Below the pieces are notes generated by a model, which was given only the letters and a program-made list of their open reading frames with translations, made no database searches and was not told the DNA's origin. Below, one piece after another: positions 3,160-8,079 of a stretch of DNA of 64,000 nucleotides (the stretch's first letter is position 1; each line of letters begins with the position of its first letter). Source of the DNA: Rhodothermales bacterium (lineage in GTDB: Bacteria > Bacteroidota > Rhodothermia > Rhodothermales > JABDKH01); the NCBI GenBank assembly GCA_965224105.1, contig CBDCYH010000002.1:2028930-2092929 (forward strand), given 5' to 3'. A program made the position numbers and the translations under genes.

Positions 3160-3942
3160 CTAGTCCTGATTAAATCGCGGCTTGCGCTTTTCCAGAAATG
3201 CCTGAAAGGCTTCCTTCGCGTCAGAGGACTGAAGTCTCGCGACAAAGTTTTTGGTTTCCGTTTGCAGTGCCATGGCGAGCACATCTTTCGTGTGTGATCG
3301 GAGCAGTTCTTTGGTAAGGACCAAAGACGCTGAAGGTTTTGCGGCCAGGTCCGCCGCGATGGCAACTGCTCGTGAAACAGCCTGACCTGGTTCAGCGATC
3401 TCGTAAAGTAAACCCATCTGCATCGCATCCTCCGCTCCAAATCTGTCGCCCGTCAAGAGCAAACCAGCAGCGCGATGGTAACCTAGCCAGTGCGGTAACA
3501 GGTAACTGGATCCGGCTTCCGGACAAAGGCCAAGATCGACGAATGGCAGCTGGAATACTGCGGTCTCATCAGCAACAAGAAGATCGCAGTGTAGCAGCAT
3601 GGTTGTACCGATCCCTACAGCCGGGCCTGCAATTCCGGCAACAACAGGTTTGCTGCAGCCAATGAGCGCATTCAGAAAGTTGTATACCGGGCTGCTTTCC
3701 CCGGTTGGGGGATGCGCAAGGAAATCTTTCAAATCGTTTCCTGCGGTGAAGCAGACATCAGATCCGTGGATGACGTGCACCCTCACATCGGGGTTCGAAT
3801 CGGCGACAACCAAGGCGTCGCCCATTTTCGAATACATCGAGTCGGTTAGTGCATTCTTTTTGGCCGGGCGACTAATTTGTAACACATGTACTGCTTGATC
3901 CACCGAAGAATGGATGGAGTGCTCTATTTGTGGGGTACTCAT
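3160..3942 (-). CDS. Enoyl-CoA hydratase/isomerase family protein
   Basis: RPAKKNAL, FTAGNDL, GPAVGIG and LGLCPEAG crotonase-fold motifs. Confidence 0.9.
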   Translation of the reverse strand: MSTPQIEHSIHSSVDQAVHVLQISRPAKKNALTDSMYSKMGDALVVADSNPDVRVHVIHGSDVCFTAGNDLKDFLAHPPTGESSPVYNFLNALIGCSKPVVAGIAGPAVGIGTTMLLHCDLLVADETAVFQLPFVDLGLCPEAGSSYLLPHWLGYHRAAGLLLTGDRFGAEDAMQMGLLYEIAEPGQAVSRAVAIAADLAAKPSASLVLTKELLRSHTKDVLAMALQTETKNFVARLQSSDAKEAFQAFLEKRKPRFNQD

Positions 3943-4037
3943 TTTGGGATGAAACGTATAGTCGTATCGTTAATAGAAGGGGGCAGCTATATTTGCATTC
4001 GCAAGAACTCGTGCGACGAACCCATCAGTATATTATA

Positions 4038-5597
4038 ATGAAATACGCTCTTGCGGTACTTTCCGCCTTTCTGGGAATCTGTCTTCCAACCACTGCCACC
4101 GGCCAATCCATTACCGGAGGCACCGTTGCGTGCACAGGAGGAGCTGCCGCAGGATATCCCTGTCAAAACGTCGACCTGATCGCATATCTCAATCTCACTG
4201 ATCTGGGCGCGTCGGGCGCGGATTTGAACGACGTTTGGGGGTGGACCGATGGACAAACCGGAAATGAATACGCGTTGGTCGGCCGGACGAACGGAGTGTC
4301 TATCGTTGATATCACCAATCCAGAACTCCCTGTCCTTATCGGGGATCTGCCCATGTCTCCCGGTACGACACCCAATGCGTGGCGGGACTTCAAGGTCTAC
4401 CGAGACCATATGTACGTAGTCGCGGACAATGTTGGCAATCACGGCATGCAAGTCCTTGACCTAACACAGGTCCGCAATGTGACATCGCCGCCTGTGACGT
4501 TTACAGCAACTGCCATCTATACGCAAATAGGGAGTGCGCACAATATTGCCATCAACGAGGCAAGCGGTTTTGCTTATATAGTTGGGACTTCTTCCGGCGC
4601 CAATACCTGCGGAGGAGGGTTGCACATGGTTGACATCCGCACGCCAGATAGTCCACAGTTTGCAGGGTGTTTCAGCGATCCAAACACGCCAAGGACCTTG
4701 GGCTCGGGGGCGGGATACACACACGATGTTCAATGCGTAATCTATCGAGGGCCTGACACAGAGCATGTTGGTAAAGAAATCTGTATTGGTTCAAACGAAT
4801 CAGGAATTAGTGTTGCTGATGTGACGAACAAGACCGCTCCGGTATCTCTCGGCGTCGGCATCATTCCTAACGCCTCGTACATCCATCAAGGCTGGTTAAC
4901 GGACGACCATCGATATAGTTATCAGAATGATGAGTTGAACGAGGTTCAGTCGGCGACGGTCATTAATACTACGACACATGTGTTTGATCTTGCCGACCTC
5001 GACGATCCGCAGTTGGCAAACACCTTTGACGGATCCACGACAGCGATCGATCACAACCTCTATGTCGTCGGGGACTATATGCTTCAGACGAATTACCTGG
5101 CGGGTTTCAGGGTGTGGGATATTGCCGACAGGGTAAACCCAACGGAGATCGGATATTTTGACATTGCTCCGTCCAATGACTCGCCGTCATTTGGTGGAGC
5201 CTGGAGCAGCTATCCGTTTTTCAAATCAGGAGTCGTTCCGGTTACGGCAGACGGGGACGCGGGATCGATCGCTGGATTGTATTTGCTTCGTGCATCTACG
5301 ACTAACCTAACGGCCGACCAGCCTCGCGCTGGTTCGCATGGCATCACTATCGACGCTTTCCCGAACCCGGCAACCGTCGCGTTGACAATCGAACTTTCAG
5401 CCAACGCCGCTTCCACTATTAGCGTTGACGTTGTGGATATTCTTGGTCGCGCAGTTAGAGGAGTTTCGGTCTACTCTGTCGGAACTGCTGGTAAGGTGTC
5501 GCAGGATATCGATACTGGAGATTGGCCGGCGGGCGTGTATTTGATCCGGGTGTCGACAGATTCGGGAATGGTTGTGGAAACGATAGTTGTGGACTGA
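4038..5597 (+). CDS. Choice-of-anchor B (LVIVD-repeat) secreted protein with T9SS C-terminal sorting domain
   Basis: Signal peptide from ATG 4038; LNDVWGWTD, WRDFKVY, SAHNI, YTHDVQC, YIHQGWLT, DHNLYV and GAWSSYPFF motifs; C-terminal AFPNPA...DILGR...PAGVYLIRV. Confidence 0.85.
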   Translation: MKYALAVLSAFLGICLPTTATGQSITGGTVACTGGAAAGYPCQNVDLIAYLNLTDLGASGADLNDVWGWTDGQTGNEYALVGRTNGVSIVDITNPELPVLIGDLPMSPGTTPNAWRDFKVYRDHMYVVADNVGNHGMQVLDLTQVRNVTSPPVTFTATAIYTQIGSAHNIAINEASGFAYIVGTSSGANTCGGGLHMVDIRTPDSPQFAGCFSDPNTPRTLGSGAGYTHDVQCVIYRGPDTEHVGKEICIGSNESGISVADVTNKTAPVSLGVGIIPNASYIHQGWLTDDHRYSYQNDELNEVQSATVINTTTHVFDLADLDDPQLANTFDGSTTAIDHNLYVVGDYMLQTNYLAGFRVWDIADRVNPTEIGYFDIAPSNDSPSFGGAWSSYPFFKSGVVPVTADGDAGSIAGLYLLRASTTNLTADQPRAGSHGITIDAFPNPATVALTIELSANAASTISVDVVDILGRAVRGVSVYSVGTAGKVSQDIDTGDWPAGVYLIRVSTDSGMVVETIVVD

Positions 5598-5617
5598 TCG
5601 AACTCCCGAAAACAGTA

Positions 5618-5760
5618 AAGCCTGAGTCCCCTAAAACTCAGGCTTCGGTCTTACCGGTTTCCCAGGCCGGTGAAGACGATAAGCAAAGAATTGCTTTTGA
5701 TGTGCATCCAAGAGAAGACGGATGCGTATTTGGTTTTTAGGTTTGGCGTTGAAAAAAACT
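5618..5760 (-). ncRNA. Candidate structured small RNA, copy A
   Basis: Hairpins at 5618-5645, 5648-5677 and 5681-5696, plus conserved AAGACGG (5715-5721) and TTTTTAGGTT (5734-5743); repeated about 170 nt downstream. Confidence 0.55.
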
Positions 5761-5777
5761 GCCAGTGAAGTTGCAGC

Positions 5778-5930
5778 AAAAAAATAAGCCCGAGTTCCCC
5801 TAAAAACTCGGGCTTGGTCCATACCGGTTTCCCAGGCCGGCAAGACAATAAGCAAAGAATTGCTTTGTGATGTGCACAGATACATAAGACGGACGGCTTA
5901 AGAATTTTTAGGTTAGAGAGCTCAAAATTC
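5778..5930 (-). ncRNA. Candidate structured small RNA, copy B
   Basis: Hairpins at 5786-5815, 5817-5846 and 5850-5865; A7 tract at 5778-5784 (U-tract on minus); compensatory and G-U changes relative to copy A; promoter directly upstream. Confidence 0.6.
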
Positions 5931-5934
5931 GCAG

Positions 5935-5962
5935 ATAATACCCTGTAGGGCCTCAATATCAA
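5935..5962 (-). promoter_or_regulatory. Sigma70-like promoter TTGATA-N16-TATTAT
   Basis: Minus strand -35 TTGATA (5962-5957) and -10 TATTAT (5940-5935); predicted start near 5929, at the 5' end of copy B. Confidence 0.55.
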
Positions 5963-6066: not shown

Positions 6067-6780
6067 ATGAAAAAAATATTATTGGTAGTGACATCTTGCC
6101 TAATCGGCTTTGGCGCAAGCGCTCAGGACCTGATGACAGACGCAAGAGCAGTTGTTACTGCTGCATATGAAGCGACGGGAGGAGAAGCCTGGCGGGACAT
6201 ATCGTCGATGGTTACGACAAACGAATTGTCGATCGAAACTCCGCAGGGCGAGCTCGCAGGTACCGCTACGCTAACCATGCGTTATCCTGGATTCCTTCAC
6301 GCGGTGATGGACCTCGCCTTCGAGGATCCGATGGCTCCTGCAATCGGAGAGATGATTCAGTTCATTTCACCCGACACCGCTTACATGAAAATGGCACAGG
6401 GAACCGAGCCTTTGCCTAAGGGCACCGGCCCAGATTATCCGTCTCGGGAGTTGGAGCTTCTTGAAAAAGAGGACGCATCGTTTTCAATGACCGTTGAAGA
6501 CATCGAAGGAGCCAAGAAGTATGTCGTGACGGTTGCTTCGGGAGAAGAAAGTGCAGACACGGTTGTGGTTCAATACGATACGGAGACTTTGCTGCGCGAA
6601 AGAAGCGTTGACAATTCGCAGGGCGTCGAGCTAACGACAACGTATTCCGACTATCGAACCGTTGAGGGCAAGACGATAGCGCACAAGGTGCGACGAACCG
6701 GAGGTGGTGGACCTCAAACCATCCGTACAAAGACGGTCGTCTTTAACAAAGATGTGGATGCTGTCTTTGCGGAGATGTAG
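6067..6780 (+). CDS. Secreted hypothetical protein, possibly LolA-like fold
   Basis: Signal peptide (MKKILL...ASA|Q), AYEATGGEAW start, C-terminal YSDYRTVEGKTIAHK typical of lipoprotein-sorting-like beta proteins (fold is inference). Confidence 0.65.
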   Translation: MKKILLVVTSCLIGFGASAQDLMTDARAVVTAAYEATGGEAWRDISSMVTTNELSIETPQGELAGTATLTMRYPGFLHAVMDLAFEDPMAPAIGEMIQFISPDTAYMKMAQGTEPLPKGTGPDYPSRELELLEKEDASFSMTVEDIEGAKKYVVTVASGEESADTVVVQYDTETLLRERSVDNSQGVELTTTYSDYRTVEGKTIAHKVRRTGGGGPQTIRTKTVVFNKDVDAVFAEM

Positions 6781-6806
6781 TCTGTCGACTTACCTGACTA
6801 AATAGA

Positions 6807-6848
6807 AAAGGCGCCGTCGGAATTGTCCAGCGGCGCCTTTGCTTTTTT
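6807..6848. terminator. Bidirectional intrinsic terminator
   Basis: AAAGGCGCCG (6807-6816)/CGGCGCCTTT (6831-6840) with A- and T-rich flanks between convergent genes. Confidence 0.8.
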
Positions 6849-6861
6849 GCCTCGCGGCTTA

Positions 6862-8079
6862 TTACTTGCGTGTAACCTGTAAGTCGGTTCTACGATTTTG
6901 TCGCCTGCCTTCTGCTGTGTCGTTGGTCGCGAGTGGCATGTCAGAACCATATCCCATGGCTGTTAGTCGATCTGCACTTATTCCTTTGGAGATCAGATAC
7001 TCCATGACCACATTCGCTCTTTGTTGCGACAGTTCTTTGTTTGCCGCATAGTCTCCCGTGTTGTCCGTATGACCCTGGAGCTCCAGAGAGATGGAAGTAT
7101 ACGCGTTTAGGATCTTGACCACATTATCAAGCTGGTCCATGGAACCTTCCCTCAGCGTAGCACTGTCGGTTTCGAACTTAACCCGATCGAGGGTAAACGT
7201 TCGCGTCAGCTCCCCGCCGCCCTTAAGGAAATCAATAAACCCGGCCAGCACTCCGCCTTCCGGGAGGCCGAGGTCCTGCCAGGTCGGCGCGTTTTCAAAG
7301 TCGAACATACTCGCAACAGCACCTGCTGCGTCTGATATGGCTTCACCGGTGGCATCGACAGCTGCGCCAGCCGCATCACCAACGGCACTTGCAGCGTCGC
7401 CGGCAGCATCAACAGCTGTGGTCGCGGCTTCGCCGACAGTCTCAGCCGCATCTCCAATACATCCACGGAGAGCCCATAGAAGGAGCAATAACAGCAGCAA
7501 TGGGATCAACCACCAAAGCCATCTCATTCCGGTTGATGCAGCACCCGCTATCGCGTCTCCGGCGTCATCTGCCAGGTTGGCGGCTGTCCGTCCTGCAGCT
7601 GCACCGGCATCTTTCACGGTGTCTACTGCCGATTCTACCGCATCTCCAACTGCATCGGCGGCCGCACCAACTGCACCACCCACTGCGCCTGCGGCTGCAG
7701 CAAGGGTACCAGAAATGTTACTGAAATCCAGACCCTGCAGCCATGCAATGGATCGGTCCATATCGGCGGCATTGGCGAAGTAGCGACTACGAGCAACCTC
7801 CTTCATGTTGCCGGCGCGGATGATGAAGTATGGCTGGCCATCATTCGTGATGCGCTCGTAGCGGTCGGGTTTAACTGCGTTCGTCGTTACACTGGCAATT
7901 CCCGTATCACGAGCCTGAACGGTTGAATACGCCTGGCTGTACAAAAGAGCGTTTCCCTCCATATCATTTACATGGAAGTAATGCTGTTTGCCAGCCTCGT
8001 CTGTAAAGGACTCAAAACCGGGACGCCCCGATTTTGACCGTCTTGAGAAATCGTACTCGTTGGCGTCTGAACTTGACAT
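6862..8079 (-). CDS. OmpA-like peptidoglycan-binding protein with N-terminal DUF1508/YegP-like repeats and an internal TM helix
   Basis: N-terminal HYFHV..GNALLYSQAYST..RDTGIASV and PYFIIRAGN.KEVARS repeats; WWLIPLLLLLLLLW TM; C-terminal LQGHTDNTG...NKELSQQRA..V and NRRTD. Confidence 0.8.
   Translation of the reverse strand: MSSSDANEYDFSRRSKSGRPGFESFTDEAGKQHYFHVNDMEGNALLYSQAYSTVQARDTGIASVTTNAVKPDRYERITNDGQPYFIIRAGNMKEVARSRYFANAADMDRSIAWLQGLDFSNISGTLAAAAGAVGGAVGAAADAVGDAVESAVDTVKDAGAAAGRTAANLADDAGDAIAGAASTGMRWLWWLIPLLLLLLLLWALRGCIGDAAETVGEAATTAVDAAGDAASAVGDAAGAAVDATGEAISDAAGAVASMFDFENAPTWQDLGLPEGGVLAGFIDFLKGGGELTRTFTLDRVKFETDSATLREGSMDQLDNVVKILNAYTSISLELQGHTDNTGDYAANKELSQQRANVVMEYLISKGISADRLTAMGYGSDMPLATNDTAEGRRQNRRTDLQVTRK

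Follow-up and report, generated by a model that had tools for sequence, protein, structure and literature searches.

A tandem pair of genes for small structured RNAs in a Rhodothermales bacterium belongs to an uncatalogued RNA family

In a stretch of 64,000 nucleotides (nt) from a Rhodothermales bacterium (assembly GCA_965224105.1, contig CBDCYH010000002.1, positions 2,028,930 to 2,092,929 of the forward strand; hereafter the window), the minus strand between positions 5608 and 5916 carries two repeats, and the evidence assembled here supports that they are real adjacent genes for structured non-coding RNAs from a family of the Rhodothermales that has not been catalogued. The reading that we prefer, at a probability of roughly 0.6, is that these genes of about 138 nt each encode small RNAs (sRNAs) of a paralogous, vertically inherited family acting in trans as base-pairing regulators. 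The members of the family are probably gene regulators. The lack of an Rfam match, compensatory changes in the stems, heterogeneous neighbours and low copy number all speak for the duplicated, independently transcribed non-coding sRNA that a preliminary description of this DNA had proposed.

Structure of the two copies

The two units are direct repeats spaced about 170 nt apart with a mean column identity of 83%. Both show the same order of elements, i.e., AACCUAAAAA, CCGUCUU and (G/A)UGCACAUCA, followed by the hairpins P1, P2 and P3. For scoring, a covariance model derived from three sequences, namely both window copies and one weak BLAST relative (model R1), and a second one derived from 21 long family members (model R2) were employed. 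The features of the pair, all on the minus strand, are as follows.

5778–5916: upstream sRNA copy, full extent of the covariance-model match with the U7 tail (5784–5778) included (150.7 bits with R1, 99.2 bits with R2)
5608–5745: downstream sRNA copy (150.7 bits with R1; P3 found in the terminator scan; fold z-score −5.2)
5914–5905 (upstream) and 5743–5734 (downstream): unpaired 5' motif AACCUAAAAA, invariant between the copies, CCUGAAA elsewhere in the family
5892–5886 (upstream) and 5721–5715 (downstream): unpaired motif CCGUCUU, of which CCGUC is invariant in alignment A4
5868–5877 (upstream) and 5707–5698 (downstream): unpaired motif GUGCACAUCA, corresponding to the family hallmark GCAYWUC
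5875–5868 (upstream) and 5705–5698 (downstream): GCACAUCA
5865–5850 (upstream) and 5696–5681 (downstream): P1 hairpin, AAGCAA-UUCU-UUGCUU
5846–5817 (upstream, loop 5836–5828) and 5677–5648 (downstream, loop 5666–5658): P2 hairpin with the invariant nine-base apical loop CCUGGGAAA
5815–5786 (upstream) and 5646–5617 (downstream): P3, GC-rich intrinsic terminator from the terminator scan, with loop UUU(U)AGGGG, reading UUUAGGGG in the upstream copy

The repeat units, their spacing and the named elements thus lie on the minus strand where the preliminary description had placed them, and this includes the U7 tract. In the minus-strand scan, both P3 hairpins proved to be GC-rich with a U tract behind them on the transcribed strand, as is typical of intrinsic terminators, with the U7 tail in the upstream copy and an interrupted U tail at 5616–5608 in the downstream one. 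Between the copies, P3 differs by a compensatory change (C-G versus U-A) and one extra pair, and P2 by an exchange of A-U for G·U and of U-A for U·G with a shifted bulge, the latter two changes pairing on the minus strand only; all of these differences had already been claimed and are present in the alignment of the copies. Conservation at the RNA level had also been deduced from two offsetting indels scrambling any peptide frame. The copies differ by indels of 1, 1, 1 and 2 nt, and the open reading frames crossing the region are not conserved in homologues.

Distribution of the family

A BLAST search of the 3.4-Mb genome returned just the two window copies, besides one weak match in a relative. 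With the models R1 and R2, however, one to five copies per genome were found in 12 of 13 genomes belonging to the same taxonomic family, with each of its seven genera represented, and R2 additionally retrieved forms of about 110 nt lacking P2 from eleven genomes belonging to seven further families of Rhodothermales. A third model built from these short forms (R3) detected the family in 54 of 401 sampled genomes of the class Rhodothermia, nearly all of them Rhodothermales, with three weak matches outside the order. In this same set, some families gave zero matches, among them one with complete genomes of about 3.4 Mb. Cultured carriers are Salinibacter altiplanensis AN15, Salinivenus lutea DBO and Salinivenus iranica CB7. 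Dozens of independent homologues in other genomes have therefore been retrieved with covariance models, which score both window copies at about 150 bits, and the pair is not an orphan, as one of the earlier alternatives had it, but part of a family spread over Rhodothermales. A loose pattern employed for a first scan of the genome collection was discarded, since almost all of its approximately 120 matches were due to chance and only one of 100 model-checked loci was real.

At a cut-off of E ≤ 10, comparison of the locus with Rfam 15 by cmscan did not reveal any family match, the best hit being MicC at 24 bits versus a gathering score of 90 and restricted to the terminator. Likewise, nine other members gave nothing below E = 0.3 against the same release, in line with the previous remark that the pair was not recognised as a known Rfam family.

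The bacterium's own genome has four members, i.e., the window pair, one short form and one diverged member, as established by the models together with a motif search. The short form, without P2, is encoded on the minus strand of contig C1 at 547070–547184 (L263:201-315 and L273:1501-1615) and starts 13 nt behind an enoyl-CoA hydratase gene, counted from its stop codon, an arrangement that is syntenic with loci of another genus (L135 and L152); it may represent an sRNA derived from a 3' untranslated region (UTR). The diverged member on the plus strand of contig C2 at about 205163–205271 (L316:364-472) lies behind a T8 box and shows CUCCGUCUU, a P2-like hairpin whose loop reads CUGGGAAA, and the terminator loop CUGUGGUGGA (GGUGGA). 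It was overlooked by the genome-wide model searches and reaches 28 bits with filters off. Tandem family members were also observed elsewhere (L127, L134 and L158), combining a long with a short form in two genomes and two short forms in one, so that neighbouring duplication is recurrent in the family. Besides, several Rhodothermales genomes possess lone terminator hairpins of the type GGCCCGG...UGGUGGGGG...CCGGGCC, matching solely model positions 78–115 and without upstream motifs, which may be further diverged members or else terminators sharing the same loop.

Conserved architecture and covariation

Motifs were counted over 66 distinct members. The hallmark GCAYWU(C) is found in 64 of them and occurs twice in 45, while 53 have GGUGG within the terminator region, 41 have a YUGAA motif inside the first 16 nt, and 37 have CCGUC. 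Hairpins of the P2 type with a UGGGAA loop are missing from 32 members, whereas 26 have one, six have two and two have three. In most long members, the P1 loop holds a second GCACUUCU and P1 is followed by a GGGUGGA linker; both features have been lost from the window copies.

Covariation was assessed with 21 long members in a structure-blind MAFFT alignment, taking as controls alignments with partners slid by one to three columns and 500 shuffles. Changes on both sides were observed in 18 of the 31 proposed pairs (P1, 4 of 4; P2, 6 of 10; P3, 8 of 12). Paired cells amounted to 88.6%, compared with 22–51% when partners were slid, and none of the 500 shuffles reached the observed values. All three stems are consequently kept in homologues with compensatory changes, as would be expected for a functional RNA. 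The G·U pairs speak for the given strand, on which 89.4% of the cells were paired versus 82.8% on the opposite one. A further putative helix between CCGUC and GGUGG (P0) is conserved on both sides and so does not covary in this alignment.

Searching the genome for terminators with GGUGG loops and for hairpins with UGGGAA loops yielded family members only in either case, and these loops are hence not a general property of the genome's terminators. In the course of the loop search, at least seven near-identical units with TGGAATGACACGTGGGGGGTGTCGTTCACCG, most of them about 150 nt apart, were encountered outside the window on contig C2 (608730–609907), probably reflecting a tandem repeat or the repetition of a protein domain.

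Orthologous locus and age of the duplication

The pair is located between two plus-strand genes, which are given here for context and lie outside the RNAs.

3930–5597, plus strand: convergent neighbour, secreted protein with a C-terminal sorting domain of type IX secretion (Pfam Por_Secre_tail)
6067–6780, plus strand: divergent neighbour, 237-amino-acid protein without a Pfam family, with a 60%-identical orthologue at the same place in L317

A single scan of metagenomes gave one contig, L317, with the flanking genes orthologous to the neighbours in the window at 60% (6067–6780) and 50% (3930–5597) amino acid identity and, between them, the same tandem sRNA pair in the same orientation. In both organisms, the loop reads UUUUUAGGGGAA in the upstream copy and UUUUAGGGGA in the downstream one, showing that the duplication is older than the split of the organisms and that both copies have been kept since. 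Moreover, the locus keeps identical blocks of 19 nt. Stretches such as CCGGCCUGGGAAACCGG are shared without change by all four of these own-clade sequences, and so is the CCUGGGAAA loop. Further compensatory changes in P3 become apparent from the comparison with L317, the downstream copy showing a change from U-A to C-G and the upstream copy one from A-U to G-C. The orthologous downstream copy has also retained the GCACUUCU motif in its P1 loop. Judging from these sequence comparisons, selection acts on both copies. Synteny also holds for the short-form paralogue, which is placed directly 3' of the enoyl-CoA hydratase gene here as well as in two genomes belonging to another genus. Altogether, the orthologous pair and the syntenic short form argue for vertical inheritance under purifying selection rather than mobility.

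Beyond the divergent neighbour, a GC-rich hairpin (GGCGCCG...CGGCGCC, window 6790–6905) is situated between the convergent genes 6067–6780 (plus) and 6862–8079 (minus). Its matches to Rfam sRNAs (ncS01, BSnc120 and STnc40) are weak and all far under the gathering scores, and the hairpin most likely serves as a terminator in both directions. According to Pfam, the product of gene 6862–8079 belongs to the OmpA family and has a DUF1508 domain at its N-terminus.

Possible pairing of the 5' end with the P3 loop

The 5' sequence CCUAAAA(A) is complementary to UUUU(U)AGG of the P3 loop, allowing 11 and seven contiguous pairs in the two copies, respectively. The L317 copies keep this complementarity, one with G·U in place of A-U and the other by means of a one-base bulge. 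In the rest of the family, four to six pairs can be formed, typically CUGAA/UUUGG including two wobbles. Duplex energies of matched and mismatched combinations of 5' end and loop differ slightly (−6.5 versus −6.0 kcal/mol), with a permutation p of about 0.03 that is uncorrected for relatedness. Hence, of the conserved long-range pairing put forward earlier, the complementarity is confirmed in both copies and in L317, but it is weak in other members; a contact of the 5' end with the P3 loop is plausible for this subclade and not established family-wide.

Promoters and transcription

Candidate promoter elements on the minus strand are the following.

5935–5962: sigma-70-like candidate TTGATA-N16-TATTAT of the upstream copy, agreeing with 10 of 12 consensus positions
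5921–5930: A/T box GAATTTTGAG of the upstream copy, an alternative −7/−10 candidate at the position typical of the family
5751–5760: T-run box AGTTTTTTTC of the downstream copy, a likely promoter element of its own, with a like box at the same distance in L125, L143, L159 and L160

The sequence TTGATA-N16-TATTAT, claimed as the promoter of the upstream copy, is indeed found at 5962–5935, and no second sigma-70-like match occurs within 1.6 kb, although chance alone would yield about one, and the position aligned with TATTAT reads AAATTTTC in L317. Most members have an A/T-rich box about 12–22 nt ahead of the U of CCUGAA, in many cases a run of T with TTTG or TTTC at its end. The −7 element recognized by sigma-A of Bacteroidota is TAnnTTTG, and the A/T box of the family resembles it. 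Where the upstream transcript starts is uncertain; the site may be near 5929, when assuming TATTAT as the promoter element, or near 5914 in the case of GAATTTTG at 5930–5923. As the downstream copy has a promoter-like box of its own, two separate transcripts are likelier than a read-through product of about 310 nt, which had been suggested as well. Each sRNA gene is thus probably transcribed on its own.

Base pairing as the favoured mode of action

The preferred explanation envisages an RNA whose mostly unpaired 5' third presents the short conserved motifs CCUGAAA or CCUAAAA, CCGUC and GUGCAYWUC, followed by the small hairpin P1, between zero and three hairpins of the P2 type (loop UGGGAA) and a terminator carrying a G-rich loop (GGUGGG, or AGGGG in the bacterium's own genome). 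The A/T-rich promoter box a few nt ahead of the 5' motif would, together with the terminator, permit independent transcription of each gene. Its mode of action would be trans-encoded base pairing, with the unpaired pyrimidine-containing motifs GCAYWUC(U), CCGUC and/or CCUGAAA as putative seeds for sites rich in purines, AGAAGUGC or AGAAAUGC for example, around the translation starts of several mRNAs. The paralogues could then contribute to dosage or differential expression. The tandem pair goes back to an old duplication of which both copies were retained. This mode is favoured because of the unpaired 5' motifs, invariant amid diverging sequence, the repetition of a motif in a hairpin loop, the strong terminator and the scattered paralogues.

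Several results weigh against it. When the sRNAs were compared with 2634 crudely defined translation-start regions by RNAduplex, predicted interactions were no better than those of shuffled sRNAs, and the energies seemed exaggerated. With blastn-short, antisense matches to the genome remained at chance level, and counting seed complements in the genome did not give any clear enrichment. Furthermore, the repeated identical motifs and the G-rich loops would suit protein binding equally well. With regard to partner proteins, Hfq is absent from the whole taxonomic family, ProQ was not found in this genome, and neither was CsrA (PF02599), which was detected in the controls Escherichia coli, Bacillus subtilis and Thermotoga maritima. 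The genome encodes one RRM-1 (RRM_1) protein, but across the order its distribution does not match that of the sRNA family; a search of the two genus g7 genomes did not find it, and within Salinibacteraceae it is listed for one genome only. As to expression, the sequencing runs holding the locus are metagenomic DNA only, Salinibacter transcriptomes consist of genome-length contigs that are uninformative on local expression, and contigs of 151–219 nt with family members in salt-lake and halite metatranscriptomes give a weak hint of transcription at best.

Alternative explanations

The strongest competitor, though a doubtful one, is a sponge or decoy RNA, in which GGA-containing G-rich loops on one to four hairpins sequester an RNA-binding protein, as CsrB and RsmZ do with CsrA. 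The loops in question, i.e., UGGGAA in P2 as well as GGUGGR or AGGGGA in the terminator and the linker between P1 and P2, would provide one to four sites per molecule. They are the most conserved parts of the RNA, as exemplified by the invariance of CCUGGGAAA in the own-clade sequences and the frequency of GGUGG in the terminator region, identical motifs are repeated inside one RNA, and the number of P2-type hairpins varies between zero and three as for the binding modules of sponge RNAs; in addition, no base-pairing target signal has emerged. Yet, as outlined above, CsrA, Hfq and ProQ are not found here, the RRM-1 protein being the sole candidate lacks the expected co-occurrence, and half of the members are devoid of P2, leaving them with one or two G-rich sites. 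The extended version, a modular decoy titrating a global RNA-binding regulator in a lineage without CsrA, Hfq and ProQ and with the number of hairpins expanded and contracted in evolution, appears slightly more doubtful still.

It is improbable that the pair acts in cis on the genes next to it, be it as a riboswitch or attenuator in tandem or, for gene 3930–5597, as a 3'-UTR structure or terminator working in both directions. The terminator hairpin of the downstream copy is indeed only 20 nt beyond the stop codon of this convergent gene, and at some loci a same-strand gene follows within 43–183 nt. However, no minus-strand gene follows here, with just the end of the convergent gene 3930–5597 lying downstream, as had been noted before. 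Several other downstream genes are convergent as well, and in seven of 27 loci, counting the longest flanking open reading frame, they are on the opposite strand. The followers are mutually unrelated, comprising an M16 peptidase, an amino acid permease, a sulfotransferase, a pyridoxal phosphate-dependent enzyme of Cys/Met metabolism, a sugar-phosphate isomerase-like protein, a nicotinamide mononucleotide transporter and a sodium/phosphate cotransporter. On the plus strand, the hairpins are without a U tail, and the conserved 5' motifs and the promoter box are far from any terminator function. Since neighbours are heterogeneous and often convergent, the RNAs are not considered leaders, riboswitches or attenuators, and the earlier view that this is not an ordinary riboswitch leader is thereby strengthened; its alternative of an attenuator or antisense system has not gained any support. 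The same gene class downstream across species, as a riboswitch or attenuator would show, was not seen, and this candidate was rejected.

Least probable of all is a repeat resembling repetitive extragenic palindromes (REP) or miniature inverted-repeat transposable elements (MITE), another mobile element or a gene for a small protein: the RNAs are multi-copy and sometimes in tandem, and open reading frames of 84 and 129 amino acids cross the region, but the genome has merely four diverged members in 3.4 Mb, positions are syntenic in related genomes, compensatory change is found instead of near-identity, terminal inverted repeats are absent, and indels of 1–2 nt between the copies as well as the lack of a conserved start codon in homologues disagree with a coding function. 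With BLAST finding two copies and models plus motif search adding two more diverged ones, the check for a high-copy REP or MITE repeat, which could have removed novelty, turned out negative.

Comparison with known regulatory RNAs

For the trans-acting sRNAs favoured here, the closest and best documented analogue is FopS/GibS of Bacteroides thetaiotaomicron, with 14 paralogues that combine a single-stranded 5' seed with a terminator, are transcribed from canonical Bacteroides promoters of the sigma-ABfr type, repress susC mRNAs at their translation starts and are bound by the RRM protein RbpB (PMC11697453). Similarities to the Rhodothermales family comprise multi-copy paralogues in the same wider lineage and in hosts without Hfq, ProQ and CsrA, a conserved and mostly single-stranded 5' part preceding an intrinsic terminator, scattered intergenic loci, some of them just behind a gene, and an A/T-rich promoter box near the start. 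Correspondingly, in the short forms of the Rhodothermales family the 5' part is unpaired and precedes a small hairpin and the terminator, and genomes have one to five copies, compared with 12–15 for FopS/GibS. In contrast, there is no similarity in sequence or covariance model, the long Rhodothermales forms bear additional hairpins with conserved G-rich loops, and a link as between FopS and RbpB is unsupported by co-occurrence in Rhodothermales. The FopS consensus quoted in PMC11697453 does not resemble the Rhodothermales motifs. A model of FopS has been deposited in Rfam according to the same paper (PMC11697453), and cmscan of the locus and its relatives gave no FopS match, the presence of FopS in release 15 being unchecked.

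CsrB, RsmY and RsmZ may be compared with the Rhodothermales RNAs in the variable number of hairpins with GGA-containing loops, and they share with them the existence of paralogues and a motif-bearing terminator hairpin. They differ in that CsrA is not found in the genome studied here, the loops read UGGGAA or GGUGGG and not A(N)GGA, there are one to four sites with half of the members lacking P2, and the 5' part consists of conserved unpaired motifs containing pyrimidines.

Sibling sRNAs with repeated seeds are also known from Proteobacteria, where Qrr, OmrA/B and AbcR depend on Hfq. These resemble the Rhodothermales family in having, in part, tandem or neighbouring duplicates, short invariant unpaired motifs and their own terminators, whereas Hfq is absent here and a sequence relation does not exist.

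Significance

A literature search did not find any paper on sRNAs of Rhodothermus or Salinibacter, and RNA-based regulation in Rhodothermales appears to be undescribed so far. The object itself is of an ordinary type, a trans-encoded sRNA, and does not introduce a new principle. It is encountered, nevertheless, in a genome without the three classical sRNA partner proteins Hfq, ProQ and CsrA, and it provides a new family for Rfam and genome annotation. With its multiple paralogues and support from covariation, the family represents an entry point to post-transcriptional control in halophiles that are cultivable and genetically studied, such as Salinibacter and Salinivenus.

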